Assembly: GCA_008632985.1 (NCBI GenBank)
Contig: QPGO01000116.1
Coordinates: 124,001-188,000, forward strand
Direction of reading: 5' to 3'
Source of the DNA: Psammoneis japonica
Lineage: Eukaryota
DNA length: 64,000 nt
In this document: piece after piece, positions 8,101 to 51,454 of the stretch
Layout of the letters: every line of letters starts with the position of its first letter
Position numbering within the stretch: position 1 is the stretch's first letter
Notes under the pieces: model-generated
Seen by the model: the letters and a program-made list of their open reading frames with translations, nothing else
Told to the model about the DNA's origin: nothing
The model's database searches: none
Translations under genes and position numbers: made by a program

Positions 8101-10401
8101 TACTATCCACAAACGATGGATTGTGTGGAAGCTTGCATCTATGGAGCGAAGGTTCCCAGCTCTCTTGGCTGGGCGATATTTGACTTATCATCACGTACTG
8201 CTCCAGCTCTATAATCGATACAAGAAGGAATTGAAGGGTGGAGCACGGTCTGCCTTGAGGAAGGTGTTGAATAGGGACGTCGCTTCGAACACTCTAATGG
8301 TTCTCTGCGTCAGTCAAGTTTTCTCCACCGGTCGTTCTCAGGAAGCGAAGGTAGAGCTTACCGACGGTTGGTACTCCATTCAAGCTCTATTGGATCCGCA
8401 CCTTACTCAATATGTTTCGAAGGGGAAGATTGAAGTTGGCTCGAAATTGTTGATTTGCAACGCGACGATGAACGGCGCTGAAAACGGAGTCGATCCTTTG
8501 GATTCAACCTATTCTTCAACAGATCCAGAGTCTTCTATTTTTCTCCGTATCGCAGTCAATTCGACTCGCCCAGCAAAATGGGACGCAAAGCTGGGTTTCG
8601 TGCCCCCAACTCCTACCTTACGTTCGCTACAAGGGTTGCTGCTGGTAAAATCGATATCTGAAATCAAACCTGGTGGTGGAAACGTACCTCTGATCAATCT
8701 ATTGGTGTGTCGAAGGTATCCGCTTCTTTTTCTGGAGCATAAAGGATCCCACGGAAAAGAAGGCGATGCGGATCTTTGCGATAGGACTTCGATTGTTTTG
8801 AATGAAAAACAGGAAAACAAGGCTCGCAAAGAATTCGATAAACGGAGGCGCCAAACGGTGGACAAGTTGTCTATGTCGATCGAAAAAGAATGTGAACAGG
8901 TAAAGTCTTACGGTGGAGCGAAGTGCTTCAATGCCATTGTTGTCTCCTTGCCTTACTGATTCTGTCGCTTTGCTTCTCACCACACAGATGGTAGACGAGA
9001 AAGCACCTGAGCTGTGGACAAGTCTATTAAAGAGTGACTCGCCAGGAGACTTCTACGAACGGCTTAGCTCGAGCGAGAAGGATACCATAGATAGGTGGAG
9101 AGAGCAGCGCTCCAGTCTACTTCAGGACTACGTTTGTAAAGAGATCGACGCAGCGCTAGAGTGCGATACTTCACTCATTCGAGAAAGTACTCCGTTTGTA
9201 CAGCTTTTGGTGAAGGCTGTTGACACAAGTGAACAAGTGTTTCATCCGCCGACTGCGAGAGCGCCATGCTGACGACTTGGAGACTGTCGGAAGACCAAAT
9301 GGATGCACTGAAGGAGGGAGCTGTGATCCGCTTCAAGGATTTGGGTGTTCGTCGAAGCAGGCGTGATGGCTTGATCCAACTGACTGCTAATCGGAAGACT
9401 CAGATGGAGGCTGTCACTTCCTTACCGAAATGTGTGTCAAAGATCGGGTATCACCGCCGCTCATTTGCGTCATTGTTCCGAGTGTGCATGTTGTCAAAGC
9501 GAGTCTTGAACAAGACCATCCCTCAGTTTCCAGCACCAGAAGTGGATACTGCTGGTGTGGTAGTCAAAGTTGTCGAATGCGACCACGAGAAAGCCGACCA
9601 GTCGACGATTTACATTACGGATGAATCTGGCCTTTTGCTTCGGGTGCATTGTAACTGTGAGCTTTTTGATATTGACGGCCTGATGTCATATCCCGACGCC
9701 ATTCAAGTCGAAAAGGATCCATCTACAATTTGCTTTCGAGATATTCGCATCATGCCATTTGACGCTACGGAGAACTGTGCTGTCGCCGTGTTCACAGAAA
9801 CTTCTAGCGTTCCTTCTCGAAAGCGGCCATGCAATCGATCGCTGGCGTTGAAGCAATGGTCCAAGTCTCTACAAGGTGGTAGAATGCTCTCATGCTATCG
9901 TCTTGCATGGAACTACAGCTCCCAACAACCAAAACTCGAGAATCGTCGTTGTCTTCTTTTGCTGTTGGCTACATTGTTGGCTTTTCGGTTCAGACCGACG
10001 GCCAGCAGCTTCAGAGGCAGTCAGAAGCACTCCAAATCATTGTCGACTGCGGTTGTGCTCATTTACAGGTTTGGGATTTTCCACTGGCACTTGTCGACGA
10101 CGCCCTTTCATCATGCTGTAACCCCGACGACGCGGTTGCCTTCAAGAGAGACCGCCTTCACGTCCATCTCAAGCACCTCGGTCTCATGTTTCGACAGAGC
10201 GGAGTTCTTGTTCACTTTGTGCTTACTCGTCAATGTACGGGTTGTGAGTACCGAGTCAAGAGCCTTCGAGCCGCTAGTTCCCGCGCCTTGTGTCAAGTGT
10301 ATGCCTCGTCTTATTCCGGAACCGACAAAAGTGAATTGCGTAAGAAACGAAAGCTAAATTCCCTACAAGAGGATATCGCGACTGCTAGTGGAGACAATTG
10401 A
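2116..10401 (+). CDS. BRCA2: BRCA2 homolog: N-terminal RanBP2-type zinc finger, long acidic region, about 15 BRC-like repeats, helical and OB-fold DNA-binding domain
   Basis: Repeated F-x-TA-G-K..I-x-VS..L-x-KA units in ORF 4058-8959; helical domain WIVWKLASMERRFP; OB1 ELTDGWYSI and NSTRPAKWDAKLG; RRYPLLFLE. GT-AG intron at 8900-8987. ORFs 2116-2529 (WTCQTCTLEN..CGVC), 2523-4208, 9266- and 9892- are joined by apparent frameshifts, so linkage of the first 2 kb to BRCA2 is inferred. Confidence 0.88.
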
Positions 10402-10675
10402 AAGTAATTTTCATTTCACAATCTATGGACTGATGACGTATAATCAATGCTACTCTCGCATGTTTCCTTTCCTGCTACTTGTACCACGAAAACAAATCGA
10501 AGAAAGTTCCGCCGTCAATTTTTTAACTAACATAGACATTTTACAATCAGCGAAATCATAGCTCTGCATCTGATGGTCGTAAGAAGATTTTCTCGTACCA
10601 GCTACGTATCTCTGTCGGGAGCGCCTCTGTTGTTATCCAATTCGTGCTTCACAAAGAACAATTCCAATTTGAGCA

Positions 10676-10969
10676 CTACTTTGACGGCGGTTTTGGAGAA
10701 TTCTGTCGCGCTTCCCTTAGTCTCGAATGTTTAGCTGAGTACACATGGTTTCCACCCTTTGATTTTCCGCCGCCACCACCACCGCCGCCCTTGGTTCCTA
10801 CAGCGTTGCACGCAAAATCGTCGTATTCATCGTACTTGTCGCCAACCGGTGGCATGGAATCGGTGCTTTCCTCACGAGCAGGGACTTGCTGCTTGGTTTC
10901 TGAAGACGATGAAGACGACATGGGGACGTGAAGACAATTGATGCTGCTTGCTTCTTGTACGGTACACAA
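10676..10969 (-). CDS. Small hypothetical protein (Gly-rich, basic C-terminus)
   Basis: 97-aa ORF with DEYDDFAC..KGGGGGGGGKSKGGNHVYSAKHSRLR and normal host-like composition; no family recognised. Confidence 0.4.
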   Translation of the reverse strand: MCTVQEASSINCLHVPMSSSSSSETKQQVPAREESTDSMPPVGDKYDEYDDFACNAVGTKGGGGGGGGKSKGGNHVYSAKHSRLREARQNSPKPPSK

Positions 10970-11104
10970 GTATGGGCTATCCTTCTCGTTTTTTATCTTT
11001 TTTTTTTATTGTGTGTTATTCGAGGTTGAGGTATCCAGCGGTCGATGGACAGGCAGTCCATCGAGCGAGAGATTTCGATGGACTTTAGATGGACTCTACA
11101 GTGG

Positions 11105-11160
11105 CTCTATCTCTACTCTAGCTAGCTAGCTAGCTAGCAGAGTAGAGACTAGCTAGAGCA
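11105..11160. repeat. (CTAG)n-rich low-complexity tract
   Basis: ctctagctagctagctagctagcagagtagagactagctag, directly at the left edge of the TpA-depleted island. Confidence 0.8.
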
Positions 11161-11179
11161 GCAGTAGACACGGTAGAAA

Positions 11180-14100
11180 AGATGCCCACCAAAGTGCAAT
11201 CACAATGGACACTTCCTGCCTCCAAGCATGGCGTGGGTTGTTGTCACAGCATCCCCATGCCCCAGCCATTTGTTGCCATGCAAGCTGCCACAGATGCAAA
11301 GGCACCAGCACAACACTGCCAGCACTGGAAGAGTGGCTGATGGCTGCTGTTCTTGAGAGCCAAAGCACAGCAGGGAGGAGTGCGGGGTGATGGAACATTT
11401 GAGCAGTGTTCAACTTCTTCTTCTTCATCCTTGTCAGAGAGTCAGAGGAGTTGCAGTTCTCAAACAACCGCCACATTGAAGCTGGGGAAAGTTTGCCAGA
11501 TCAGACCACTGCACAGTCTCTTCTTGTAGAGCCAGCGCTGCCCCGGGGAATGTGCTCATTGCAACAACCGCTGCCACAGTCTGGACTCTGCTGCTCCAGA
11601 TTGAGTGCAGCAAAGGTCAAAGCTCTTCTTTGAGCAAGAGCACTTGGCCCCTTTGTGCAACAAGCTCCTCAAAATCTGGACAAAAAAAAAAGCTGCCATC
11701 AGAAGATTGTTCTGGCCGGCAACTCTGCTGGGGGATTGGAAAACCCCAGTTTTTCAAGTTTTGGCTGCTTTGCACATCACCCTCCACTCTGTTGGCAAGA
11801 GGAAATTTCCTGGTTCACCTTGCTCTGAGACAGAGGTTGGTGAGGTCTTTTTTCTCATTGACGAAGAGACATGTGGATGCTGTCAGCTCAAGAAAGGCAA
11901 AAAGTGCCACATCAAAAAGCTGCTTGACAATTGACAATTGTTCCACAATGGCAAAATTCTTTGCTCATGAGAACCCACCACCTTGGAGGCCAACCAACTG
12001 CCACTCCCTGCATCAGCTGCTCCATCACCTGTCAGCACTGTCACCAGCACATCCACAGAGTTCAAGAAGTTTTTCCCATGCTTCTTGCACTTGCCAGCTT
12101 GGGAATTGAGTGAGCTTGAACTTGTTTCTGCCAGAGGAGAACACATGGATGGATCCAAGCATGACCACAATTTTCTCCATTTGTTGGGAGGCATCAGCAT
12201 TGGAGCACAATGCTGCACAACCACTTGAAGAAGACATGTCATCAAGCAATGAAATGCAGTTGTTGCAGAGATGATCTGTGCAGCAGCTTCTGTTGCTGTG
12301 GATGATGACCCACACATGCAGAAGACCTGGACAAACAACATCAGCAGCTTTGTTCTTGTGTCCCCTTGCGTTGACATTCCACAACAGGTTGAGAACAGTT
12401 TGCATGCTGATGGCACATGAAATGATGAGCCTCTCTGGTCACATCATGAGCATCTCCATGAGTTGGCAAATGGCTGGCAAGGCAAGTCAAAGACATTGTG
12501 GGAAATGATGATCTTGAGAGATTGGTTGTGTGCATGTTGACAACTGGCCCAAGGGCACCAGTGCCATGGTGGGAGCACCTTCCTGTTTGAGGAAAAACAG
12601 GTCTGCAGCTGGGAGCCCACTTGGTCCTTGCCAAGAGACAGATTGATTGTGGTGCTGTGCCTGATGTGTCAAAGATCAGCTGTCCAACCAAAACAACATT
12701 TGGCCTTGCTGACCACACCACTGTTTCACAGTGTTTCACAAACAGCACCTGGCACTTTAGATGACTTGGTGGCACAGTTGCCCACTCGAGCCTTCCATTT
12801 TTTTCTTGCACTCTGAGAAAAGTTGCAAGTTGATCCTGGAGATCATGTGTCAACCTTTTGTTTGTGCGTCCTGTCAACTGCAAAAAATGCAGGACACCCA
12901 CCAAAGATGAGCACCTTGAAAAGTGAAAAGGGTGAATGATTTGACCACCCAATTTTGGGCCACCAAAATGACACAAAGTTGCAGGTTGCAGGGACAGATG
13001 TTGCCAGAGTGCAGGCCAATGCACACATCTTTGTTGCTGCAATCCCTGAGGAAGGCCAGAAGAAAGCAACTCTAAAGAATTTGCAGCTGAGCCTGAAGCC
13101 AGCTCCTTCACAACAGACAGTGACTCAGCCTGTCTCCATGAACTCTGCAAAGCATCACTTTTGCCTCACTGTGTTGCAGAGCTGCAGCACCAAGAGCTGG
13201 ATCCAAGCCCTGCAGACCTGTGTTTGTTGCCAAGGACAAAAGCACACTTCAACAGCTGTTGCCTGCTGGAGTGCAGTCTTGTGCTCTGAGCCATTGCTTG
13301 CACAACAGAGTTCTGTGCTGCAGACCGCTGTTTTGGTTGGAGGCAATTTGTGCTGAGTTGTTTGAGCCAAATCTGAACAGAGGAGAAGAGATCTCACCAA
13401 ATGAAAAACAGTGCAAAAATAATGGGCGCCAGCTGCAAGTGGTGCAGTGACAGGCTTTTTGATCAGCATCACCCAGATGCATGTGTGATGATGAGTGTCC
13501 TGGGGTTGGCAAGTGAGGGTCACATCCTTGAGCAATTTGTGGCTCTCTTGCTTGTCATTCTCAATTTTCTTGATGTGTTTGCAGTGCACTCCATCAACAT
13601 GGTCACCAGAACTTGCTCATTTTCTGGGAATGCACTTGTTTCCATCTGGTGCAGAGCTGATCCCATGTGATGGTGAACAAGGATGATGGTGATGAAAGAA
13701 CACATCTGGTGAGGTTGATCACAGCTGGGAGAGGAAAATTGAGTGGTTGGAACATGAAAGTGCCACCAAGCAGAAAGAGGGCTGGTGAACATCATTGTGA
13801 TGTGTGAGCTGAAGGCAAGGAAGCAAGTGAGGAAGCATCAGAGGAGTGATGTGGATGACAAGTCAAAACTGGCATGACAGACAGTTTAGCACCAGAGCAT
13901 TTGTTGGTGAAATGACCTTTGCTGTTTTCACACAACACAGTGGTGGAGAATGAGCAAGGCAACAAATGAACGGATTTGGCAAATGCAGTTCAAACCCTTG
14001 TGGAGGCTGCCAACTGCCAAAAAACACTGTCACATGTGCAGAAAGACACTGGCTGGGTTGCCATCATTCTTCAAAGTGGCAGCAGAGCAGAGACATGACA

Positions 14101-17100
14101 AAATTCCATGTTGCCTCATCTGCCAGACCCTGCCAAACTTCTTCCCCTCTGAGAGCATGCAAGAGTGCTGTCAGACAAAAAGGCAAGCTTTGGCACTCAC
14201 AAAGTCAAAATCAACACATGGAATGAACACAACAACAGCCTCTGTGCAACATGCTTGAGTCAGACAACTCATCCAAACCTTGTGATCAATGTGTCACTCC
14301 TTTGCTGTGTTGTTGTGTGTGCCAAAATTTTGGAAAGAAAGGCTGCAAGGAATCAACCAATGGATTGGTCATCTTTTGTCCAGCAGTGGGAACCAGGTTT
14401 CTGTGACATGACACAAACCACCTGCACCTTTCAGAACCAGCAGCATGTGTTGCAGCATCTGTGCCAGATGTGACAGCAGCTGTGCCAGATGCAGCAGCAC
14501 TGCAACAGCCAAGGAAGGAGCTTTTGCCAGAGCAAAAGCCCTGCCATGGTTGTGGTGTGTGCCAGCTCAAGAACTGCAGCAGGAATCTGAAATGTTTGAA
14601 GATGAAGCACATTCCCACCAAAACAAAAAGTGTGCAAAGTTGGAATGACTGCCAGCTGGCGATGCTTCTTGACAGAGGAGGGAGCAATTTGAGTCAGGCC
14701 CAACTGAGCTGTGCATCAAGTGCAGCACCATGATTGATCTCTCTTCTCTTGGCAAGGGCCAAGGGAATTTCTTTGGGCAGCAAACCCCTTTTCCCACAAA
14801 CTGGAAGGTGCTCCTGCAATGCTGCCCTTGGCCCAACTGCCAACATGGCTGTGCACCACCACAACCAAACTCTCAAGGTCCTTTTCTGCAATGATGGAGG
14901 CTCATGACATGACCCAAGGCTCACCTTTTTGTGTGCCCCATCAAGCAGATGACAAGCTGGCTGGTCATCATGAGGTTTTGCTGCATGAAGCTGTTCTCAC
15001 CCTCTGGTGAAACATCAGCACAGGACATCAACATGCAACAAAAGCTGCTGATGGTGTTCTCCTGTTGTCTTCTGCGCATGGATCATCATCAAGAAGATTG
15101 ATGAAAACTGAGTGGCACATCTCAACAGCAGCTGCTTTGCATCACTTGACCATGTCCTGCTTCTTTGCACAATTGTGCAGCACTGTGCTGCTCCAGCTCA
15201 TGACAAGCAGCAATGCCCCTCAAAAGGAGAAAGTGTTTTGGTCAAGCACATGTGGAGCCATCCATGCATTCTTGTTTTGGCTCGCCACTTTGGAGGAATG
15301 GTCAGTGAGGTCAGAGGTTGCCACAGCAGGAGGAGGTTTGTCATCAGGTGCAAGTTGAAGGCCTGAGCAAATGTTTTGAAATGGTGAACACCCACGCCAG
15401 TGGGGACCAGAGGGGCTTGACTTTGCAAAGAGGAAGGAGGTGGAGCAGCTGGCTCTCTTGAGAAATTTCTGACATTTCCAAGGAGCTCCAGAGCTGCAAA
15501 AAATCTGGCAGAGGCAATGGAGTTCACAGCATCTGACACTTCATTGGAGATTCCTGGAATCAGTGGGTGGGGTTGACCTTGCACCGGCAAGGCATCCTCT
15601 GGAAGGTCACTCATCATGCTTTGAAGGGTCTGAGCAAGGTGCAAGCAAACTTGCTTGTGATGTGGTTTCTTGTGCACCAAGACATTGAAATGGGGAAAAC
15701 TGGCCCTCCTCTTTTCATGGGGATGACATCCTGAACACCGTCAATGAGTTTGAGCCAGATGCAAAGGCAGAAATTGACAGTTTTGGCACAATGCAACAGG
15801 GGAACCAAACAAGTTGTTCCGGCAAGTTTGCATTGGTGCTGAATGGCCTTGCCATGCGCTTCAGCTTCAGGATGAGAACAGCGCCAATGGAAAAGGATTG
15901 GGAGCCACCTGGATTGAGTTCTTGGCAGGAGAAGAAATCTTCTGGGGAATGAGCCTGATTGGTGATTTTGCACAGCTGTTTGGCACAAGGCACAATGGCT
16001 TGGAGTTACTTGATGACAACATCAGTGGAACAGCATTGAGGGAAATGCTCAGTGATGTGCAAGGTCTGTGGTGATGGGGCGTCTCATCCCATTCATGATG
16101 CTGTGCACAAATGGAACTGTCTTTGAGAGTCTCACTCACAAAAGAAATGTCTCAAATGTCAGAGAGGGCAAAAGAGGTGTGGAGGTGATGGACAATGACA
16201 TGTGCAGGCTTGTGATGATGAGTGCCACCAATGCAATGAATCACAAAATGTTGAGAGTGAGTTCTCAGACAGGAAAAAGCAGCAACAGCACTGACAACGA
16301 TGGGGCTGATGCAGCAAGTGGTGGTGTGTGGGTGCTGGTTGACTTCTAAGGTGCTAGAAGGCTCATGATGCAGCATCAGTGAAGAATTTTGCCACACGAA
16401 AATCCCAAGCAGCAGCTGTTTGATGTGACATTTTTCACCTTTGAACCAACACAGCCTTCACACATCTCTTGGTCAATTGGGAAAAACCTCACCAACTTGT
16501 CTTGCAGCAAAATGAATCAGGAAATTTGACCTCTTTCCAGCAGCATCAGAAGGTGACAGTGCAAAAAGCAAGGTTGGAACCAGGATTTCCCACCCCCCCA
16601 GCATCATTGTCAGTGTCAAAACAGCACTCTGAAAGCAGCACTTGTTTGCCCAGATTTCAAAGAGCTTGTTGCACAAAGGGGCAGAGCACTCTGGCTCAAA
16701 GTGCGCGACATGCTGCACAACCATGGCCCTTGCAGCGAGCGAGCCGAGAGTGGGGATGATCATGAATCCCACACGAAGAAGAAGAAGAGACTGCAGTGGT
16801 CTGACCAGGCAAATGCCATGGCTCCAGCTGCTCCCCAAGAACCACCATTCCCCTGGCAAGAATGCAATGAGAGAAGTTGGACACTGCTCAAATGATGTTT
16901 CATCACCCCATGCTCCTCCCCGCCCCGATCGCTGGCTCTCTCAACAAAACAACAAGAAGAGCTGCTCGCTCTCCCAGCTCTCACTCTCCTCCTTCAGTGC
17001 TGCTGATGCCTCAGCATCCACAGCAGCTTGCATGGCAACAATGGCTGGGATGTCAGGGATGCTGTGACAACAACCCATGCTGCGCTTGAAAACCCTTGCA

Positions 17101-17140
17101 GTGGAAGTGTCCATTGTGACTTGTGATTGTGCCGAGTTTC
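11180..17140. mobile_element. Degenerate element bounded by long (about 850 bp) diverged inverted repeats; TpA- and CpG-depleted
   Basis: About 11190-12040 is the reverse complement of about 16280-17130 (e.g. tcacaatggacacttcc / ggaagtgtccattgtga; cccctttgtgcaacaagctc / gagcttgttgcacaaagggg). No intact transposase recognised. Confidence 0.65.
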
Positions 17141-17418
17141 GATCTGGAGGAAAAATTGGTTCATGTTTTTCTTTCTTTTGTCATTTTTTTCATTTCTCCA
17201 AATTTTTCATTAGAAAAACGACGCCAATTGAAGATTTCGCGTGTGTACGGAGACTGAGGTAACATCCTACATACCTAAATCCTACACGCCTTCCTGGTAT
17301 AATTCAGCTTCACCTTTCTCTGCGCTTTTTTGCTTGCTGCTCATGGCATGGCGGCGGTGTTTTGCGGAGGTCTCTGAGCTTTACTCAGCAAGAGGGTCAA
17401 ACTCCTATCAGTCTCAAC

Positions 17419-20400
17419 ATGGCGGAAGACGCTACAAAAGCCTCAAAGTTATCGCCCTCCAAGCCGGATTTAAGCTCGACGTTCGAACCAGCAGCCAAGA
17501 GTGACAATAAACGCAACAAGCCCAGACTGCGCAGCAGTGACTTTAGCAGCCCCACCACATCTGTAGCGGATGTAACCGAAAGCAGCGATGTCGGACGAAG
17601 TGCCCGTCTCAGTTTCTTTCGTAATTTGATTGGACATCGCAACGATGATTACCGTGCGGACGCCCCGCAAGAAGTTGTGGTGGAGATGGACGAGGATCAA
17701 GCCATGAGTGCAGAAGCAAGTAACAATCGGTCGAGTCGCTCGAGTCGCAGTAGAATCACTTCAAGATGGAGCACTCGTCCCAGCACGGAAGAAGCGTCTT
17801 CTCTTGGACAGCGTGGCAGGAATTGTTGGCGTTCCATGGTGGAACAAGACATGCCTCGGATTTTGGGATCCAGAATTTGGCATGCCGGTCTCATCTTTTT
17901 CACGCTGGTGCTGCTGTTTGGATCGCAGATTCAGGCGCTGTGGATCCCAAAGAAGGAGACGTTTTCTTTGACGTCCTGTATATGGTGGACTTTGTCTTTT
18001 TCATTACAGATATTTGCATGAGATGCTTGGTGGAAAAGTCGTACTTTCATTTTCAGCTCTGTCAAAAGGATGACTCCACTTCGACGTGGGGAAGTTGTCG
18101 GCTTGGATCGTTTATGTTTTGGTGCGACCTGATTTCTTCCTTTCTGTTGCTCTATGACATCACCTTCATCAATCGGAGTGTCTTTCAGACTTCAACTATC
18201 GATATTACATTGGATAGCTTTGGGCTAGTGGTGAGTTCTGGTGTGACTAACCTGTTTTGTTGAATGCCTTATGAATTCGCAGTCTCTCATCCGTTTTGTT
18301 GTTCTTGCTTTACTTTAGACCGGCGGTACGGAAGAAATCAACACGGCTCTACCGATTCGGTGGCAGCCAGACTTGATCGTCACGGTCTTGCGTACAACTC
18401 GCGTGGCTCGTTTTATCCGTGCCTCTACGGTCGTCAAGACAAGCTCCATGGTGAATTGGTATTGGATGTTCCAATGGTTCAATCCAATTTGTTACTTTGA
18501 GAAAATAAAAGCCTTTTGTGGTCGCAAACTTGGAATGAAACAGAAGGAACCCGAAGAAGTCGTTGCTGCCGAACGGAGTGGAAGTGCTGATGCGTGGAGC
18601 AACTTGGCCCTGGGAGCTATTTCGACTGTTCAAGCCAAGCAACACGCCAGAATGCAACAAAAGGGCTTCAAGGGTTTTGTGGTCTCGTGTTTGATTCGTA
18701 TTGGTGTGTTACCAAACGAAGAGAAGAACTTGAAGGAGCGCATTGTGGCTGCTACCAAGATTCAACGAGCCTGGAGACGCTTTGCGACCGCCGATCTTCC
18801 TGCGGACGCGGAGGATGTAGCTTCTGGTAACGATCCGTTGGATCATACGGCAAGCAAATCCACTGATGGTTCTGCTAAAAAGAAACAACCTGGAAGGACC
18901 AATGCGATTCAAAGAACGATTCGTCGAAGTCTTGACGGTAAGGTGCAAGAGTCTCAAGTTGGTAGCGCCATGCGTGAATTGACGGGACAACGCGTCGCCG
19001 TTGGTGTCATCCTTTCCATGATTTTGACCATTCTTTTTACCTATTCTGAGAATGATGCCACGCTGCCGTCCACGATGATTGTCCTTCACGGGCAAACGGC
19101 CATTGAAGGGTTCGCGAATCAGGCTCTCAACGCTGCTCGTCGGAGCTCTGTACCTGGTCTGTACGAATATCAAACGGCAAATGGTACGGTGTATGAATTG
19201 AGATTGATGGCGAGGATCCTGACGAACTGAGGGACTGGGAGCTCTTGTACATTACAATCAAGGGTGACGAGGACAGTCTGAATTACAATGGAACAACAAC
19301 GGGCTACTTCACCAACCGCGAATACGTGCGTGATGCTGCTCTTGTGGAAATCCTCATAACCATTTTTATTTTGCTCATTTGGTTCTTTGGAGTCACGGCG
19401 TTTGCGGGTCCGGTCATGACGCTGGTTGTGATTCCATCGAGCGAATGATTCGATTGCTCGCGATGCTTGTAGATGACCCACTGGGTTATCAGAGCAGCAT
19501 GCGTTACAAAGATTTTGTAAACGAAGAAGATCAATTGACAAAGAACTCGCGCTGGACAAAGGAAGTGTTGAAAGGAATGGAAACGTAAGTTGTACTTTGT
19601 GTGATGGAATCGCTTCAGGGAAAATGGCATTCTAAACTCACGCTTCCATCTTTCCCTATGCTTAGTTCGTTTCTGATGTCTACCATCAATCGTATCGGGT
19701 CCTTGATGAAAGTGGGTTTCGGTAGCGCTGGCGTAGAAATCATTCGGAGCAATTTGCAAAGGGGTCAGAAGAAAGACACGCTGTTTCTTAACTCCCAGGG
19801 TTCTACGGTGGCGTGCATTTTCTTGTTTTGCGACATTCGACAGTTTACAGATGCCACAGAGTCGCTGCAGGAGGAAGTTTTTCTGTTCACAAACAAAATC
19901 GCCGCCGTTGTGCACTCGTTCTGTCACGCCTATGGTGGTTCTGCAAACAAAAACGTCGGTGACGCCTTTCTTCTCAGTTGGCGGTTAAAGGACGAAGGGA
20001 AGAACTCGGCGACCAATTCCTTTAGCGATGGCATTGGAGGACACAATACAGACACGTTTACGACCGAGAAGAACGAGGCTGATAAAGCACTTTTCTCGGT
20101 TGTGAAGATTTGCATTGCTCTTCAGCACGACGAGTACTACATAGAAGCCATGTCTCCGTCGTCTCGTGAGGCACTTCTGAAGAAAATCGAAAACAGGGAA
20201 GGGCCAGTGGTGCAGGTAAGCTTTGATTGCGTGGGGTTGTGGAAAGACTCAATCGATGCGCACTAACGGATGTTTATGTTGCGTTATTACCAACAGATGG
20301 GCTTTGGCTTGCATGCCGGCAAAGCTATTCAGGGAGCCCTTGGTTCACAGCGAAAGATTGATGCCACGTATGTGTCCGAAGCGGTGGAACGGGCCGAGTT

Positions 20401-33248: not shown

Positions 33249-34913
33249 CTAGATACTCCTACCCTCCACGTACTTAAATTCTGGATTGGCGTTCACCAAA
33301 GGAAGCCGGGTTGGCCCACCACGGGCAGCCGCCGCAAGCCACCACTGTCCCAAAGACATTTGTGCAGAACCCTCCATGGAGAGGTAAACGGCACAGGTGT
33401 TGTCACGCCACGCTGTCACGACTCCTCTTGGTTGCTTCTTACCTGCAATCCGATGGTATTCCGCTTGTCCCGAGCCGTGCAAATTGTGTCCTGGCGTCAT
33501 GACAATTTCGGCACCCACCACTAAATCCCACCACATGTGGGGAGCTCCACTGGACTCTGCAAGTCGCTTTCCGTTGCCATCGTACGGCACCAGAACCCGC
33601 CGATGCTGGGCTAGAACAGCCTTGCAAGTCAGTAATGGCGGTACACCAATGTTCATTTTTTGCAAGAGAGCGGTAAGCACTTGATCGCTTTCACCAAAGA
33701 TCCGCAGACTCGTCTTGTCATCCTGTGGGGTTTGTTGCAAATTAATGATAACCATGCCAAGTGACTTATTCTTTTTCGATCGCTTCGCAGCCCTGGTGGC
33801 AACGTCGTCCGCCGTGAGTCCACCAAGAGACGTGCCGAGAACCAAGACAAGGTCGGCCGTTTCTTTTTGTTGTTCCATCCACCTGCACTCTTCGTCCTTC
33901 AACCGTCCTGAATACAGAACCACTGGATTCGAAGGGTCGTACCATGACCCGTGAATCTCATTGACGCATTCTTGCGGAAAACCCGCCTTTTGTGGAAGAC
34001 CATCGTGATTCTGCTGTACCCATCCATGGACTAGTCCTTGCCTCCAAAGTGCTGTCAAGGCATGGTGTGTTTTGGTAGGTTGCGCCGTGACTGTCAAATT
34101 CTTGGGACGCCCAACTTGTTCGTTTCCTCCTCGAGCGGCCATGCCAATCCCCGCCGCACGTGAAATACCCGCTCCCGTGTAAAGTATAGTTTTGCGCGAT
34201 TGGCGGAGCAAGTCAGCCAATTGATTCAACTTCCAATCCATTGTTGTGTCTTCATCTCGGTATTCCGTCGCGGTTAACCAAGAAGGACCATCGTAGTGAT
34301 CGTCTCGAGGTTTGTCGGTCGACTGCCAGTGAGTTTTAGGTTGCTCGAGATGAATAGATTCTTCATATCCTAGACGTCCATGCCAAAAGGCCGGATCATC
34401 AGGTTGCATATAACCATGATTCGCCAACAATTGCAAGTAGTGCGTTCGACTGTGGCTGACCACAGAACTACTAATATCCATGGGACTTGTCGTGTCCAGC
34501 ATAGCAGCGACATTGTCGGACATGCCCATTGCCTGTAACTCGTGTCGAGTCGTGTGAGTCTCGTCTTGGGAAAAGACAAGTGGATGCACTACGCTGGAAT
34601 TGTGCTTGATTCCAGTCGCTGGGTCCGTCCACAAGATCGAGACGTCAACATCAAAGGTACCCCAGCCGGTAAAGGTGCACGACTCAAATACGACAGTCAT
34701 GCCATTTTCGGCTTGAATACGACGGCATTCCAACTCGTGTCGTCGAGGATGAAACGTGGGGTGGAGCATCGCGGTGACCTGGTCGAGTTGTACCGCGGAG
34801 GAGGAAGATTCAACCAAGAGTTTCCAACGCCATTGCTTTCGTCCATCGTCGTCAACAACGCAAACCGCAGTGTTTTGAACAATTACAACAGTGTCACTAC
34901 GGCCATTGCTCAT
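33249..34913 (-). CDS. YEATS-domain + Sir2-family (sirtuin) NAD-dependent deacylase fusion
   Basis: YEATS signature LHPTF..TGWGTFDV; sirtuin motifs YTGAGIS..AGI, QQNHDGL..KAG, EIHGS, LVLGTSL, IINLQ.T. Confidence 0.85.
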   Translation of the reverse strand: MSNGRSDTVVIVQNTAVCVVDDDGRKQWRWKLLVESSSSAVQLDQVTAMLHPTFHPRRHELECRRIQAENGMTVVFESCTFTGWGTFDVDVSILWTDPATGIKHNSSVVHPLVFSQDETHTTRHELQAMGMSDNVAAMLDTTSPMDISSSVVSHSRTHYLQLLANHGYMQPDDPAFWHGRLGYEESIHLEQPKTHWQSTDKPRDDHYDGPSWLTATEYRDEDTTMDWKLNQLADLLRQSRKTILYTGAGISRAAGIGMAARGGNEQVGRPKNLTVTAQPTKTHHALTALWRQGLVHGWVQQNHDGLPQKAGFPQECVNEIHGSWYDPSNPVVLYSGRLKDEECRWMEQQKETADLVLVLGTSLGGLTADDVATRAAKRSKKNKSLGMVIINLQQTPQDDKTSLRIFGESDQVLTALLQKMNIGVPPLLTCKAVLAQHRRVLVPYDGNGKRLAESSGAPHMWWDLVVGAEIVMTPGHNLHGSGQAEYHRIAGKKQPRGVVTAWRDNTCAVYLSMEGSAQMSLGQWWLAAAARGGPTRLPLVNANPEFKYVEGRSI

Positions 34914-35889
34914 GGTGTGTGTTTCGTTTCGATGCCTTTTGAAGAATAATGAAAACAACGCTGATGGCAGTCAGAATCAACAAAAAATGAAACGTGCATC
35001 GCGGAAACGCAGATCATAGCGGGACTCACTCGGAAGTCAAAAGAACAAGTCAAATGAGATGTCACAAAGTCATAGCAATGGTCCGGGGGTGCATTTGTAT
35101 GTATAGGGCCTAGACCTTTCATCATCTTGACCTCCGTTTGTCACTGGTGGTGTCAGGAGCGGCCCACGTTCTCGGCGCCCATCATGGCACCCATACCTAT
35201 CATCCACGACTTGAGGACGCGGTTCGCTCGCATTTTGAAGTTGGCCGTTCTCCCTCCACAATTTATTTACGTTATATATTTCTGTATACAATTTATGCTT
35301 TCATGTTCAAACATACAGAAATACTTCAGACCTGAAGCTAATGATGATAAGCGAATCGGGTTTCGCAAAATGCAGTTGCGACACACAAACGTGATAGTCA
35401 TAGGAAAGGGCAGTTCTCAGTCGAGTCATTCTTTCTTTTTGTTTCCGTTCGTATCGGCATTTGAATTAATAATAATATTAATCATTAGTTATCGCGGGAC
35501 TTGGTTGTATGTGGTTGTATATTCAATGAAGAAATGTTTAAAAAAATTAAGCGATAATTAATCTTCAAGGCCGGATAAAGGTATTCCTTTTGGCGCGTTA
35601 AAAAGATGACGGTCGTGAGCGCCGCAACGCTGGCGTTGATCTTGTGTGGTGGATGGAGTGGCGTTGCATCACGTGTGAAGTTCTTGTGATCTGCTTGAGA
35701 GTGCGTTCTGGGATAGAGGTGTTCCATATGCTATCAAAACAGGAGCTCTGGGGACGATCGACAAGCGAAGAGGCAGTGTGCTGTTTGGGAGAGAAACAGG
35801 GCGAACACAATTTTGCATACGGCCGTTTTTGAGTCAGGTGAACCTCTTCATAGTTCACAGTTCGAGGCAGGCGGCTTATTCATTCAAGC

Positions 35890-36960: not shown

Positions 36961-37700
36961 TTACCTATCCAGAGCAGCGTCTCTTGCCAGTACTTCTGGT
37001 GAAAACTTGACTAGAAACACAGCCTTTTCCTTTCTCGGAGGCAAATTGGTGGTTGCACTCCCGCTCCCCGCCATGTTGGAGCCGGGTGCGTTCGCTGCGC
37101 TCATTTCACCCTCTTCCAAAGCGACACTGTGTGCCGTGACACGAGCTGTAAAGCCCGCTCCGTCCAACACTCCCGCAATAATCCCCGAAAGATATGCATC
37201 GACACTTAATTGTCCCAAATCAGAAGGCACCGACACGTAGATGGAGGTAATGGGTTCATAGTCAACAATCATGAATTCATCCGCATGATCAATACTCCGT
37301 TCCAACGAATCCGCAGCCTTTCCAAAGAGAGACTTCCAAACCGACGATGACACGAATTGTAAAATATTCATCAATCTCGTTTCTCGTTTGGATTCACGAG
37401 CGCGATACGCCAACAATTCAAGAACTTTGAGACCGACGCCGTATCCGGCACTCTCCAAACGCCGCTCCAGCTCCGAGATGCTCGCAACGCGACTCTGATG
37501 ATACTGAACCAACTCGGAATACAAATATGCAAAAGCACTCAACGACACGGATCCGTCAGCACTGATTGAGAGAGGAATAAAAAAGAATTAGTTGTGCTCT
37601 GCAAACGAGCTAGCTTTTTGCCACTATAAACCTGTCAAACTCACCGTGAGCCTCGTCCACCCAACGGCCGGTCGAGAATGTTTACGTTTGACCGACTCAT
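36961..37700 (-). CDS. TRAPPC5: TRAPP complex subunit 5 (Trs31)
   Basis: MSRSNVNILDRPL exon 1, intron about 37563-37645, then VSLSAFAYLYSELVQY..LERRLESAGYGVG..VWKSLFGKAADSLE..GF.ARVTAH. Confidence 0.93.
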
Positions 37701-38192
37701 TTCGCTCGTTCGCTAAAAATCTAATAAGTACAGGTGGGTGTATTAAAGTCAACTCTACAATATGATCACTTCTGCGGTGATCAAGAGTCCAACACAGAAC
37801 TACAAAGTCGAGTCTTCAACATAAACAGAGGTAAGCGTCTCTGAAATTGGCCATCTTCCATCTCCGCTCCAAATCACCAAAACAAATTCCAAAATCCGGG
37901 TGCAAAACGACCGCGCAAGAGCAAGCAAGGTTGCGCGTGTGCTCCGTCTGTATGTAGCTCCGTCCCTCCATTTCACAATGTCTTACCGGTACTCGCCTAC
38001 GAAGCCCTACACGAATTTGAAATTTTGGATTTTCGATTGCGTAAGCACACATTTCGTGGCATCGGCACGCACTGCGTTACCTGTTACCTCTACAAGACTC
38101 ACTCACTGACGTGCAAGACTGCTTGCGTTGGCATCTCGCTTTTCTGAGTTTTATACATCCGATGTGCAGTGTCAGAGTTCCTTGTTTAGGTA

Positions 38193-39482
38193 ATGCAGGC
38201 AGGATCGAACTTTGTCGAGACTAGACGTAAAGAGCATGAATACCTAGCGCTCTTCCACGCTCACAAAAATCTCATTGTTGGCGGACACGGCGTGGTGGAG
38301 AAGCCTGTAAATGCCAAAGGCGAGTGTGGCCGTAAACAACCTAGACGCAGCATGACGATAAAAGAGGCAGCAGAAATAAGCAACAAATCTCTTATGAACT
38401 TCTTCCCATCCTTTGATACGTTGGGAGACGTGAACTATTTTCAAGAACACGAACTCTCTGTCGAGGAGTGGCTCCAGTATTGCCTCTACAAGCTACCAGA
38501 AAAGAGGAGGCGCGTACCACAGCCAATCCTCGACCTTGAAAACAATAGCGATAGACAGGATGACATGCCTTCTTTCTTCTCGCCTTCCGACGCTGGTCGA
38601 GAGCTTTCTCCAGGCTATTTCCTGCATCCTGTGACTCAAGAGAACCTTGCAGATGCACAAGATCTTCTCTTGGAGATTTTTCCTGACGACGTTGCGCATT
38701 TTGAAGTTGTATTTTCGGTTCTTAAGAAGCCCTTTATTGAGTATGAGTTTGACAGCGACATTGAAAACTCTCCCACCGTTGCCAAATCTTTCTTTTGGCT
38801 GATCGTCGAGAAGGCGACTGGATCGCCTGCTGCCATTTGTTCTTTAATGTACCGTGATGAGGACTATGAAGACTCGCTTTGGGGGAGTTGGTATGGCGTT
38901 GGTCCAACCTTTCGTCGTAAAGGGTTGGGTTCTTTAGTTCTCCTCTTCTTGTTAGAAAAAAGTGTCTTGTCTCGCAAAAGAACCGCCAAGTTCTTTACTG
39001 AGGAGTTGGATTTTGAAGAGCAAGCCAACAGTTTGTACGACTACGTCGGGGCGAAAGTGTACAAACGCCAGTACTTCCCGAAAGGCAAGTGCCACCGTAT
39101 CTGGAGGCAGGCTCAAGTCGGTGGTTCGTTGAAGAATTTGTTCGTTGGGCTTCTGCTTATCAACATTCTGCGATTTCTGCATCGTTGTCGATGCTTGTTG
39201 TGGGAATTGTCTGACCTTGCTTCACTGCAACAAGACAGCAAGCGGTCCGTCATTTGCGCCCCTGCGAAGACGACGAAAGGTGACAAGCTACTGGGCTGGC
39301 TAATCGTGCTCCTTCCCCTATCTTTCGTGACGGAAAGCGTGAGGCGCTTTGCAGCGCGCTTTCCCAGCATCGTACAGCAGACGGTTGTATCCATCGTCAA
39401 CCCATTTGAACCCTCACAATCAGAAGTTGTGGAAGTTCCTCCAATCAATAGCCAAGCCAACAGCTTGGAAAAAGGTGACTGA
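38193..39482 (+). CDS. GNAT-family acetyltransferase, paralog 1
   Basis: Motif A WYGVGPTFRRKGLGSLVL, motif B ANSLY..VG; hydrophobic C-terminal segments; the true start may be downstream. Confidence 0.75.
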   Translation: MQAGSNFVETRRKEHEYLALFHAHKNLIVGGHGVVEKPVNAKGECGRKQPRRSMTIKEAAEISNKSLMNFFPSFDTLGDVNYFQEHELSVEEWLQYCLYKLPEKRRRVPQPILDLENNSDRQDDMPSFFSPSDAGRELSPGYFLHPVTQENLADAQDLLLEIFPDDVAHFEVVFSVLKKPFIEYEFDSDIENSPTVAKSFFWLIVEKATGSPAAICSLMYRDEDYEDSLWGSWYGVGPTFRRKGLGSLVLLFLLEKSVLSRKRTAKFFTEELDFEEQANSLYDYVGAKVYKRQYFPKGKCHRIWRQAQVGGSLKNLFVGLLLINILRFLHRCRCLLWELSDLASLQQDSKRSVICAPAKTTKGDKLLGWLIVLLPLSFVTESVRRFAARFPSIVQQTVVSIVNPFEPSQSEVVEVPPINSQANSLEKGD

Positions 39483-41050
39483 ACGGTCAGTGCACTTCTA
39501 ATGTCTCCCTGTGCTTGTGGCTAGATCCTGTTTGGGATCAGCATTGCGATAGAGTGCAACATTTTTGTCAGCCTTTCTTGTTGTACGGTGCAACATAAAT
39601 CTCACGGTGTTTCACGAAAAAGTGCCAAGTTGCACACACACAGACAAACGTAATTATTTTTAATCATTATTTTGTTTATAAACATGTCGTCGCTAGCCTA
39701 CTGCAACAGTCTGTATCTCTTTTCTTCAGCAACCAAGCCACGCCCAACGCATTCTTCGTCTAGAGAGGCACTTCCAACAGAAATGGACCCACACCTCACC
39801 AACTGCACCACTGCTGTTTACGACAACCACCATTGCCAGTCCCCATCCACACTCGGGACTTGTTTGACCATTTGTGTGGGGAAGACGGCACAGAATTCAC
39901 AGAAAAAAGTGCTGGGTTGTGTGCTTTTTGTCGCCTTAAAAGTGGAGGTGGGTTTGCAAATGGACTGCCACCACAGTCAGCAAGCTCCACCACACACGTT
40001 GCTCATGCTGAATCTGTTCTTTGCTTGTGCAGGAAAATGCCATCAAGAGAAATGAGACACTCACCCAAGTTTTGCCATGCAATGCAGGGATGAAAATTCA
40101 GTTTGGTCAAGAGGTGCTGTTGGGAAGTGCAAAGCTCTTTCTGTTGTTCAAAAGAAAGCAAGATGTGGCAAGTTGGCCAACTGACAAGAAGTTTTTGACT
40201 CTGAAGAGGATTCGAAGGTGAAAGAAATGTGCACAACCCCCAGGTCTGAGTTTCACCCACTCTCTCTTCCAAGGTCATGTCTGATGTGAATCACACTGGC
40301 AATCTCCAGTGTCAATCACACAAAGAAACATTGAAAGAGAGCTGGTGCATGTTCTTTTCGGCATGTTTGTGCTGGGCATCCTTGACAATGAACTTGAGCA
40401 TTTGCAATGAAAAAACCTTTGTTCAAAAGAAGAGCTGACCATTGATTCTGAGTGAGAGCTCAATCAAGTGCCAGCGACATAAAAATGAAAGTTGATCCAA
40501 GGCTGGCAATGGCACCCAACTGCAGAATGGGCTAAACAAGCTCAGAGCATCTGCTTTCAGCAGTGCAGCAGTTGACCATCTAGGTGCATTGTTTTCAGCT
40601 TTGGTGCTCACATGAAAAATAAAAAAAATGCACACACTCACTGCTCACTTGCTTTCCTGTTGACACACCCAAACTCCATCACTTTTCTGTGGCCTGTTCT
40701 ACATTTCATTCATTGCCATCCAGACACTCAAGGCTTGAGGATCTGATGGCCCAAATGAACAAATGTTCTTGTCAAAGAACTCTTGTCATGCAGAGTGTTG
40801 GCCTGGAAGAAAGGCCACTTCAAGCCCTCACAGCCATGGACATCCATGCCAGCAGAATGACAAGCAAAACGAAAATGTCAGTGGAGCAATGCAAACAACA
40901 AAGAACTGCTGATGACAACCATCACAGCATGTCAACCAGGGCACCTTTCAGATGTGATTCTGAGTCATCCTGCCAAATTTCACAGCCCCAGGCACCGCCA
41001 GTGGTTTGTGACATCTGCGCATCCAAGAGGAGGTGAGGAGCCAAGCAAAA

Positions 41051-41054
<4 letters not shown>

Positions 41055-41090
<36 letters not shown>
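41055..41090. repeat. (CT)n microsatellite
   Basis: Run of about 17-18 CT units. Confidence 0.95.
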
Positions 41091-41095
<5 letters not shown>

Positions 41096-41835
41096 TACCC
41101 AGTGCAAAGCCTGGTCTTGTGGTTGTGCACTGCTGAGATCTCCTGCAACTGTGTGGGCATCATTGTGTTTTGGAAAGTGAACACAACATGGCTGAAGAAT
41201 GGGAAGAGGGGGTCAGCCAACAAAGACCAGGTGCCTGTGCACAAGATCTGGGAGACACAGAAAAAAGGCTCACAGGCCATGCAAGTTTTGTCAAAACAAG
41301 TCCAGTTGTCAATCGATCACAACGCGCTCACAGATGTGTCTTCTTTGGAGCATTGCAAGTCATTCTAACAAATGTCATTGCCACAAGTGCTCCCAATGCT
41401 CCATGGCATTGTTTCATCACAAAGGCGTGTGCCACCCAACAGGAATTGTGACACCCTAAAAACTCATGCCATGTTTGCATCATCAAAGAAAAGACCCCAA
41501 TCCATGCCGAGGTTTGGATGACACAAGTGACAATGATGCAATGTGCAGCTGCAAGTGAAAAACATCAAGAGAATGATGATTTCACAATGTGCACCCAGAG
41601 CAGAGATTGTTGCCTCCAATGTCAGCTGTCGCAGAGCAATGCTGCAGCCTGCGTGCAATGTGGCAAATTTCAATTCTCTCCAAAGCTTGAAAAAAGCCAA
41701 GCAATCTTTTTCAAAGTTGGCAATCTTGACAAAGAGCATGGATGGTTTCATGGGTGACTTTGAGCCACTGGAGCTGTTTCAGCTTTTTCAAATGAAAATC
41801 AAGCTCTCGGCTGGCCTCAAGAACCTTGTCACCCC

Positions 41836-42212
41836 TTTGGATTCATGAGTGCAATGCACCACCAACGGTTCAAGACCCTTTAGACCGATGCCGCACCCGA
41901 CACTCTCCAGCTCCAAGATGCTTGCAATGTGACTCTGATGTAGCTGGTCATGCTGAGCCACTCAATGACACAGATCCATCAGCACTGATTGGAAAGAGAA
42001 CAAGAGAATTGGTGCTTTGCAAATGAGCTGGCTTTGCACCACAAACCTGCTGTCAAACTCACCCCGTGGGCCTCGTCCACCCAACCGTCGGTCGAGAGAA
42101 TGTTTGCATTTGACAGACTCATCATTTCTCTCATTTGCTGAAAATCTAACAAGCACAGGTGGTTGCAGCCAAGTCAAACTTGTCAAGATGATGTGATCGC
42201 TTCTGTGGTGAA
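41836..42212 (-). pseudogene. Decayed copy of the TRAPPC5 5' region (exon 1, intron, start of exon 2, promoter)
   Basis: Aligns to about 37387-37780 (e.g. cctcgtccacccaac, tgtcaaactcacc, cagcactgattg) with deletions and YpR transitions. Confidence 0.9.
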
Positions 42213-42816
42213 CCACACACTGAATTTGAAAATTTTTGATTTTTCGCCGTTTCGGCCAGTTTCTGATCTTTTAGCACCTTTTTCACAATGTGCTTGTCAC
42301 GAAATGCTCTGATTGTTGATTGCTGATTGCACTTCCTTCGATTCTTCTAACAGAGACAGTGTGTGGAGGAATGGCGTCAAGATGAGATGGGATTGTGCAG
42401 CACTGAATGTCTTGGTGCATCCTGCTTCTAGGATGCGGTGCACACGCAGCAAGTTTGCTTGATGCGGCCGCCCTCTGCGTGGCCCATGCGCCTCTTCTGC
42501 GGCTCAACAGGGCCCTCTGGCAGAGCAGCCAGAGTGCTCTCTCTGCTCTAGCTGGAGCTGGCCCCAGCTAGAGAGCTGGCTGGCTGGGACAAGATGATGG
42601 AAGGAGCAACGCGACATTTTGTTGCACATGTCAGCTGCACCATCACGCTCCACATTTGAAGCTTTTGGGCATTGTTCTGCATTGAACGAATGCATCATCA
42701 TCCGCCAAGCTTTTGTTTGTGTGCGCTCGACAACAAATTCGCGAGATCAGTCCAAGAAATGCGGCATTGACATTCATGACGAGATTGCTTAGAAAGTGTG
42801 CACTGCTCACATTCCG

Positions 42817-43288
42817 AGTCGTGGTTCGTCTGTCCACTGACCCAGATTCTCTGTTGTGTCTGTGCTTCCGTCAGTCGGAATTCTCGTTGAAATTCTTTTC
42901 GCGCTACGTCGACTTGATTCTCAAGCCGAATGCTTTGGGAATCACAGGCGGTGCTTTGGAGATCACAGGCTTTGCACAGATGTTGGGCCAACCACAGATT
43001 GGTTCAGCAGCATTTGGATGATTGTTGTGAATGTGGTTGACCCTGAAGTTTGCACCAGTCTCTAGTGCAAACCTGCAGATCAACCTCTGTTTGGGTGCAT
43101 TCAGCAGATTCAGTCTAGGTGGCTCACAATTTGGTCGCCAGCACTTTTGTGAAAGACTGAACACTCGTCACCACTCGTCAGCAGATTCCATCTGCTTGCA
43201 TTCTGCCTGAGGTGTCAATCTGGAGTGGACATCCAGTCGATGCGTCAGGAAGGCACTCGGAGCTTGCGCGGACACGCGAGCTTCGACT
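42817..43288 (+). repeat. 5' LTR
   Basis: AGTCG..CGACT, colinear without indels with the 3' LTR. Confidence 0.95.
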
Positions 43289-43672
43289 GGCCAGTTCGCC
43301 CAATTGGGGCAACTCAACACGTTCTGCGCTTCTGGTTGGGGATGCCCAAACCAGAGCAACCCTGTCAACAGCTCTGATGCCATCAGTGCTCCTCATTGGC
43401 TGTGCTCCGTGCTCTTGACATCAAGCACTGCGACTGACTCCGTCAGCTGAGTGGCTGGTTCCGCCAGAAGGTTCATTGTTGATTTTGCACGTGCACCATC
43501 TCAGGCCCCACTCCACCCCGCGGCCCTCCTGAGACCCAAGAGAGTTCTCCAAGCTTGCACTCTTTGATTGAGAACATCCCAGACGATTGGTCCGACTCGA
43601 CAGCTTCAAGCGTGCTGTCGGACATGGCTGACGACCCCGAAGTGTTCGAGGATCAGCCTCCTGAGGATCAAC

Positions 43673-51377: not shown

Positions 51378-51454
51378 TTCCGCAGAGAAATCAAGTCACA
51401 TCATCCCACTGCACAACTTCATGTTGTAACATGAACTGACAATGACATTGTTGT

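Follow-up and report, generated by a model that had tools for sequence, protein, structure and literature searches.

Repeat-induced point mutation (RIP), known from Neurospora and other Ascomycota, turns CpA into TpA, thus creating TpA, and requires that its target be duplicated. Erasure of TpA has been described in the rhizarian alga Bigelowiella natans, where, in the available text of the report, 231 of 302 de novo mutations fell in two integrated viral regions and 230 of those 231 were A to G or T to C changes at TpA (Mettrop et al., bioRxiv 10.64898/2026.01.13.699255). For integrated viral DNA the same text puts the de novo rate of TpA to TpG or CpA at ~6e-7 per site per generation, and it counts 124 clusters poor in TpA and rich in CpA and TpG, recognized by thresholds of at most 0.43 for Rho TpA and at least 1.52 for Rho CpA+TpG; transposon domains are enriched among its TpA-poor genes, and an ADAT2 homologue is offered as the candidate enzyme. 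A full-text literature search returned this as the sole paper describing TpA to TpG/CpA hypermutation, and the search found no report of the signature in diatoms. In diatoms, transposons are CpG-methylated and some species carry RID-like DNMT4 enzymes, according to the part of the source available (PMC9998398). Here an island with almost no TpA or CpG is described in the diatom Psammoneis japonica, in a 64,000-nucleotide stretch (assembly GCA_008632985.1, contig QPGO01000116.1, positions 124,001 to 188,000 of the forward strand) that is called the window below and from whose first letter all positions are counted. The island is probably an insertion of ~5.95 kb that is dead and non-coding and has the structure of a long inverted repeat; its pyrimidine-purine (YpR) steps were probably rewritten by two transition processes confined to the element, one fast at TpA and one slow at CpG, with the TpA eraser persisting.

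The island stands out from the rest of the window by composition.
11175-17130, no strand: the island, a unit of 5956 bp nearly free of TpA and CpG (8 TA, 37 CG).
At the density of normal DNA, for which 44.7 kb of the same window serve as reference, ~230 TA and ~353 CG would be expected in this length, and no normal stretch of equal length holds fewer than 186 TA. In sliding 1-kb windows between 11501 and 17000, the observed/expected ratio (o/e) is 0.00-0.05 for TA and 0.02-0.21 for CG, eleven successive overlapping windows all lying at or below 0.05 for TA; the flanks stand at ~0.4-0.75 for TA and ~0.9-1.3 for CG. The difference in TpA from genic DNA, on which an earlier reading made from the letters alone (the sequence-only reading) had staked its case, thus holds within the window. 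That reading had counted about 1 TpA and 3 CpG in 12001-13000 and more than 15 TpA in the 240 bp at 10381-10620, and a recount gives exactly 1 TA and 3 CG for the former and 17 TA for the latter. The enrichment of TpG and CpA that it noticed amounts to a mean o/e of 1.75-1.98, doubled and equal for the two. Its description of the six-frame open reading frames (ORFs) as poor in Tyr and rich in Cys and His is likewise borne out, with Tyr at 0.0% in the island and 1.8-2.0% in the flanks, Cys at 6.1% versus 3.4-3.6% and His at 5.0% versus 2.7-3.3%.

The missing dinucleotides are accounted for within the YpR class. Per kb, normal DNA has 38.7 TA, 59.3 CG, 72.8 TG and 70.2 CA, and the island has 1.3, 6.2, 114.3 and 113.5; TA and CG together fall from 98 to 7.5 and TG and CA together rise from 143 to 228, while the YpR total is nearly constant (241.0 in normal DNA and 235.4 in the island). 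Because the total is unchanged, TA and CG have shifted into TG and CA and not into other dinucleotides. The outcome is strand-symmetric, with 681 TG and 676 CA, and the two are interleaved at random along the island. A runs test (z = -0.24) found no strand runs in it, and so no strand-coordinated clusters of TG or CA of the sort a processive single-strand deaminase would leave. The random alternation indicates that each site was resolved independently.

The borders are abrupt. On the left, 14 TA lie in 11085-11174 and none in the 352 bp of 11175-11526; on the right, CpG reappears at 17133 and TpA at 17211, with no TA in 17131-17210 and 9 in 17211-17300. The sequence-only reading had drawn sharp borders at 11160 and 17200; the sharpness stands on these TA counts, and the positions were slightly off, the real ones being ~11175 and ~17130, inside the span it claimed. 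Beyond the right border, 17131-17210 is 80 bp of T-rich DNA in which CpG is present and TpA is absent (chance ~0.045 at normal density); the erasure may have reached slightly beyond the arm, or the element may really end there. A TA-rich repeat abuts the left border.
11095-11168, no strand: a (CTAG)n palindrome, untouched by the erasure, in the stretch with 14 TA in 90 bp.
The palindrome marks the sharpness of the left border, and it may be a boundary element, an insertion scar or a young microsatellite.

The island is also recovered in contigs built from reads. Run X1, one public sample, contains 0.86 of sampled words of the stretch, and its Logan contigs have a k-mer depth of ~59 in both island and flanks. 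One contig of 7192 nt spans 10600-15435 with 11 substitutions, another spans 16300-17700 with 5, and short contigs lie between; together they reproduce the island at ~99.7% identity over both borders. X1 may be the assembly's own sample, hence not an independent isolate. Since both borders and the TA-free sequence are present in read-derived contigs, a consensus artefact is ruled out.

The limits of the depletion are those of a structural unit. The island contains an outer and an inner pair of inverted arms.
11200-12041, plus strand: left outer inverted arm, which aligns to the reverse complement of 16285-17119.
16285-17119, minus strand: right outer inverted arm, partner of 11200-12041; by eye the similarity extends to ~11186 and ~17134.
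12130-12810, minus strand: inner continuation of the left arm, paired with 14575-15281.
14575-15281, plus strand: inner continuation of the right arm, paired with 12130-12810.
15282-16284, no strand: an insert of ~1 kb found in the right arm only and absent from the left arm, as judged from the offsets of the arm alignment; it is equally TA-free.
12811-14574, no strand: a central segment of ~1.8 kb, without detectable inverted symmetry or recognizable coding remnant.
The alignment of the outer arms has 912 columns, of which 147 contain a gap and 175 a mismatch; where there is no gap, identity is 77%. The inner arms reach a score of 293 in a transition-tolerant local alignment, against 31-44 in 10 shuffles, and blastn aligns them in pieces at 69-73% identity. 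Depletion sets in no more than ~25 bp from the end of the left arm and ceases where the right arm ends; the composition island is therefore the element, with arms of at least 1.6 kb each around the centre. Summed contig depth over the right-arm insert runs at 66-110 per bin versus 59, and the raised depth over arms and insert, with partly matching contigs, suggests that there are a few diverged copies elsewhere in the genome; further copies of 15282-16284 probably exist. In one X1 contig, of depth 66, sequence of the left arm is connected to sequence of the right arm on the opposite strand (11674/16516, 11978/16451); it represents either a further copy of the family, of lesser length, or a graph flip at the inverted repeat.

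The element resists classification. Terminal inverted repeats, as in a terminal-inverted-repeat DNA transposon or a foldback element, are present in the form of the 77% identical arms and their inner continuation. No target-site duplication is visible at the ends of the island, where heavy mutation could hide one, and a six-frame translation of the island, with stops read through as X, gave nothing above cut-off against Pfam (two sub-threshold matches only, DUF632 at 15.2 bits and SCAB-PH at 15 bits), a search in which a transposase remnant could likewise be hidden by heavy mutation. The longest ORF of the island (12344-13165, minus strand) had no homologue at E <= 0.01 among 300 candidates, and tblastx of the island against the window returned its own inverted arms only. 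Transition-tolerant alignment to the window's other depleted blocks (39600-42815 and 51378-52400) found no kinship, with scores of 35-48 against 35-41 in shuffles. A metagenome scan with a degenerate pattern of the conserved arm core gave no matches, and a further metagenome scan gave 12 loci with nothing in common beyond the 21-mer.

The direction of mutation can be read in a second depleted block of the window, which holds a dead partial copy of a gene for a TRAPP protein and, to its right, a Copia element.
36964-37587, minus strand: the live TRAPP parent gene (PF04051, E 3e-40).
41836-42211, minus strand: a dead, incomplete copy of this gene that lies within the second depleted block and gives the direction of mutation.
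42816-43288, plus strand: 5' long terminal repeat (LTR) of the Copia, compared with 50905-51377.
50905-51377, plus strand: 3' LTR of the Copia, compared with 42816-43288.
38125-39524, plus strand: a direct duplicate of 1.4 kb that serves as control, compared with 52626-54018 (87.6% identity); it keeps its TpA.
At the 16 aligned TA of the live TRAPP gene, the dead copy has TG 5 times, CA 6 times, TA once and something else 4 times, so that 11/16 have become TG or CA. Its 26 CG have become TG in 10 cases and CA in 7, with 6 still CG and 3 otherwise changed. The fragment was converted while its parent 4 kb off was not.

The Copia shows the same changes after its arrival. Over 473 bp its LTRs differ by 36 transitions and no transversions, 33 of the 36 at YpR steps, and the differences include 10 CA/TG discordances, 4 sites with TA versus TG or CA, 9 with CG versus TG or CA, and 3 other changes. 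Since the two LTRs differ from each other, those changes followed integration. The pol region (47457-49604) was aligned with 22 of the 150 relatives returned, chosen for near-full coverage and with one Tyr-poor relative dropped; in the 18 columns where Tyr occurs in at least 30% of relatives, the Copia has no Tyr, 8 Cys and 4 His (12/18 Cys or His), and other conserved residues are retained in 54-100% of columns. Two tandem duplications within the Copia (49215-49839 and 43673-44120, ~300-bp spacing, 89-92% identity) differ largely at YpR, with 32 of 36 differences being transitions. The Copia has 3.2 TpA and 51 CpG per kb and is itself saturated for TpA, so that the Copia and the island differ in CpG and not in TpA. 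The left part of the second block, 39600-42815, which holds the dead TRAPP fragment, has 9 TpA and 19 CpG per kb; as it is CpG-poor, unlike the Copia, it is an older layer adjoining it. In the dead Copia (43300-50900) the longest remaining ORF has 716 codons. TAA and TAG are lost to the TpA process, which hardly ever makes stops; dead elements therefore retain long ORFs, which are not evidence of function.

The control duplicate shows what the process spares. Its copies keep 49 and 47 TpA, 36 of them common to both, with no CA/TG discordance, and duplication alone is therefore not the trigger. A fragment of a host gene, on the other hand, was converted merely for lying inside a depleted block, so targeting looks domain-based, directed at silent or foreign DNA, with sharp edges. 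The copies of the duplicate sit in long ORFs (430 and 441 codons) without Pfam match and bracket the whole 13-kb transposon block.

Rates and relative ages were calibrated on the LTR pair. Since integration ~87% of TpA and ~22% of CpG per LTR were converted, which puts the ratio of the two rates at ~8; TpA conversion exceeds background ~650-fold, an order of magnitude only, resting on 3 background changes in 2 x 473 bp. The near absence of CpG from the island, together with the ~8-fold faster loss of TpA, makes the island an older target than the Copia, and by the LTR-calibrated CpG rate it is ~9 times older (6 vs 51 CpG per kb). The sequence-only reading had taken the island for a target of the Copia's TpA-erasing process that is older and by now saturated, and had ascribed the CpG loss to a separate process; the TA to TG/CA direction in the window, the YpR balance and these CpG densities support that reading.

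The TpA steps that survive bear on the preference of the eraser. In the depleted blocks of the window 64 remain. YTAR makes up 35 of them and RTAY 3, whereas the 1730 TA of normal DNA include 268 YTAR (p = 2e-12) and 563 RTAY (p = 1e-7). The YTAR share, 55%, also exceeds the 26.8% expected, from the flanks of TG/CA in the blocks, if survivors had newly arisen from those steps (p = 3e-6), and inside the island YTAR accounts for 5/8 and RTAY for 0/8. From these contexts the eraser seems to prefer 5'-TAY.

The arms of the island allow the same events to be sought within the element. CA in one arm faces TG in the other at 15 of 149 sites (10.1%); in the seven other double-transition classes the figure is 7 of 567 (1.2%). 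Such an excess, ~8-fold, would be expected if each arm had resolved an ancestral TA or CG independently. Outside the columns that are discordant in this YpR fashion, the arms differ by 64 transitions and 72 transversions in 717 columns. That divergence predicts ~102 new TpA in the island if none had been removed, and 8 are present, so the eraser kept working on the lineage of the island until recently.

Several points weigh against this account. At aligned TG/CA sites the arms agree in 101 of 116, which would mean that much of the conversion predates the split of the arms or that the arms were never TA-rich. TA stands against TG or CA at only 2 arm sites, and CG against TG or CA at 7. Metagenome pattern scans, the ORF homologue search and alignment to the window's other depleted blocks found no unmutated relative of the island; in the island itself TA to TG/CA is therefore inferred and not directly seen, and without such a relative its CA/TG discordances are not separable into TA and CG ancestry. 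Inverted arms are not reset at insertion, so that their 23% divergence dates the arm split and not this insertion, which weakens the arguments from age and from re-creation of TpA. The excess of YTAR could come partly from how new TpA arise, given that CTA/TAG make up 43 of 64 survivors versus 43% expected. Of the 21 substitutions between window and contigs inside the island, 8 are between CpG and TpG or CpA, with CpG in the contig in 7 of the 8, and one is a TpA difference (TpA in the contig and TpG in the window at 14220); present TpA activity on the island is thus not seen directly.

Some of these points bear on the alternative that the island arrived already erased, the element or its family having lost TpA and CpG earlier and elsewhere, so that its borders are merely those of an insertion. 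The concordance of the arms, the coincidence of the borders with the arm ends and the lack of any TA-bearing relative among the searches made are all as this history would have them. It is nonetheless unlikely, given the 8-fold excess of independent CA/TG resolutions between the arms and the ~102 TpA that were due since the arm split and are represented by 8, which show that erasure continued in the lineage. In the neighbouring block, moreover, a fragment of a host gene underwent conversion where it lay and the parent gene, 4 kb away, was spared, and prior erasure would need the same process anyway, only earlier.

The preferred account, a dead inverted repeat rewritten by two processes, can be put as a mechanism. 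In the first process, A:T pairs would be changed to G:C by fast hypermutation strictly at TpA, with TpG and CpA equally likely and chosen site by site; it would be the process that emptied the neighbouring Copia block. In the second, C would be changed to T at CpG ~8-fold more slowly, most simply by deamination of 5-methylcytosine (5mC) in silenced DNA. The target would be a domain of silent or foreign DNA and not duplication as such, and the TpA eraser would have stayed active on the island, holding TpA at an equilibrium of mutation and erasure. What is observed is a change of A:T to G:C at TpA that is strand-symmetric, domain-bounded, fast and persistent, alongside a slower change of CpG to TpG or CpA. 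The putative agent is a DNA adenine deaminase (A to inosine, read as G) that prefers 5'-TAY and would be recruited to silenced chromatin. TadA/ADAT enzymes act on A34, which an invariant U33 precedes, in keeping with a T ahead of the target; to our knowledge no natural enzyme for adenine deamination of double-stranded DNA is known. In the simplest chemistry, which is also the one proposed by Mettrop et al., adenine in DNA would be deaminated to hypoxanthine. The sequence-only reading had held that deamination cannot remove TpA, which is right for cytosine and does not extend to adenine, whose deamination could.

A different chemistry would leave a similar trace. A TET/JBP dioxygenase could modify thymine at TpA to a base of the 5-hydroxymethyluracil (5hmU) or formyluracil type that mispairs with G and changes T to C; like adenine deamination, this yields A:T to G:C at TpA on either strand, as observed. 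In dinoflagellates, as far as the available text relates, a TET/JBP enzyme makes 5hmU mostly on transposable elements, where it aids silencing, and the text cites older work in which the replacement of thymine favoured TA and TC (PMC11572971). In the island TpC is not visibly affected, and the YpR total is conserved with only TA lost. The base 5hmU pairs normally with A and is weakly mutagenic, and the apparent TAY preference fits a TadA/ADAT-like enzyme, with its U33-A34 target. Oxidation of thymine is thus held to be improbable, with adenine deamination preferred.

Editing of transcripts offers a third route, in which ADAR-like or ADAT-like enzymes convert A to I in RNA and reverse transcription fixes the change. 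The long inverted arms would form double-stranded RNA, and the available text of the B. natans report (bioRxiv 10.64898/2026.01.13.699255) cites a preference of ADAR for a U ahead of the edited A. Six-frame Pfam and ORF searches found no reverse-transcriptase remnant in the island, and editing of one strand would give TG only, whereas TG and CA are equal (681 and 676) and interleaved. A non-mobile gene fragment is affected as well. ADAR-type editing was rejected: its strand-asymmetric A to G change is not found, and strand symmetry and the LTR differences that followed integration contradict it. RNA-level editing is accordingly very improbable.

Two further explanations are weaker still. Modified bases cause A to G and C to T consensus errors in some long-read assemblies, and the X1 reads may come from the assembly's own sample, but systematic miscalling or another sequencing or assembly artefact is hardly to be credited when X1 contigs at a depth of ~59 match the island over both borders, when 72 transversions and 147 gap columns are among the differences between the arms, which thus represent real, old divergence, and when the Tyr to Cys/His changes sit in a pol that can still be aligned. 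Many RNA viruses and some retroelements are poor in both UpA and CpG, but selection against these dinucleotides in element transcripts, in place of mutation, can scarcely be believed where depletion is near-total (o/e 0.00-0.05) and uniform over a centre and arms that match no protein family, where a dead host gene fragment is also affected, and where conserved Tyr codons of the Copia are destroyed, a loss of conserved residues on which this candidate was rejected.

Apart from the depleted blocks, the window is gene-dense, with long uninterrupted ORFs that include a BRCA2 homologue of 1633 codons. Its DUF6824 protein has named relatives in diatoms only, among them Attheya, Amphora, Epithemia, Cylindrotheca, Mayamaea and Stephanodiscus, whereas a look-up of the 6PF2K gene gave no taxonomic information. 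A single ORF of 573 codons on the minus strand (33252-34970) weakly matches YEATS (E 8e-4) as well as SIR2 (E 5e-7), so that a chromatin reader and a deacetylase are combined in an unusual way.

TpA hypermutation of foreign DNA had previously been the subject of one report, a 2026 preprint on a rhizarian alga, and the diatom footprint adds a second lineage. It is possible, if doubtful, that a mutator of DNA directed at domains of chromatin is active in diatoms; it would change TpA to TpG or CpA in silent foreign DNA at hundreds of times the background rate, prefer TAY, respect borders to a few tens of bases, be blind to duplication, persist on old targets, and be the same system as that of Bigelowiella. 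If so, it would be an ancient genome defence across the SAR (stramenopile, alveolate and rhizarian) supergroup, acting through natural adenine deamination of double-stranded DNA. Diatoms are ecologically dominant and genetically tractable. With the footprint known from this second lineage, the enzyme can be sought by comparing genomes with and without the signature. The island adds constraints on any such agent: borders that match the element to ~25 bp, no strand coordination, no triggering by duplication alone, persistence on old targets and an apparent TAY preference. In practice, insertions can be dated by two clocks, as TpA is lost ~8-fold faster than CpG; those who work on base editing would take an interest in a natural mutator of adenine in DNA; and in annotation long open frames in dead elements of such blocks should not be taken as evidence of function.

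Set beside the known systems, the locus resembles RIP in that dense, dinucleotide-specific transitions are confined to mobile or repeated DNA and kill it. RIP was rejected, both because the direction, taken from the TRAPP copy, is opposite, with TpA destroyed and CpA/TpG doubled, and because duplication is not the trigger, the 1.4-kb duplicate (87.6% identity) being untouched and a gene fragment being affected by lying in a block; the sequence-only reading had already set RIP aside on the ground that it would create TpA. The CpG component resembles decay of methylated CpG, in that CG has given way to TG or CA in the dead copy of the TRAPP gene, between the LTRs and between the arms (7 sites), in that the island has 6.2 CG per kb versus 59.3, and in that 8/21 contig differences lie at CpG; that process cannot explain the loss of TpA. 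With the 5hmU of dinoflagellates the locus shares a transposon-directed change at T:A pairs in an alga of the SAR supergroup and an old report of TA/TC preference, but in the available text 5hmU is an epigenetic mark and is not reported as a mutation process, and there is no TpC loss here (PMC11572971).

The closest likeness is to B. natans, here compared with the available text of its report. As in that alga, the changes are A to G or T to C at TpA, giving TpG or CpA, seen in the second block and the Copia and inferred in the island; they are confined to blocks of foreign or mobile DNA beside normal genes, the borders of the island being its arm ends; TpA depletion goes with CpA+TpG enrichment, the island lying far beyond both thresholds; and a single-copy region is targeted there, and duplication alone is insufficient here. 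The rate excess is of similar size, ~1000-fold as measured in B. natans and ~650-fold as an indirect, order-of-magnitude estimate from the LTRs. Unlike the hypermutable viral region of B. natans (Rho 0.45), the island is saturated (o/e 0.01-0.05), and a slower decay of CpG accompanies the loss of TpA, unlike in that report as available. The diatom trace is a fossil footprint whose rate is estimated from the LTR comparison, its target is an inverted-repeat element and not a virus, and its host belongs to the Stramenopila, whereas B. natans is a chlorarachniophyte of the Rhizaria.

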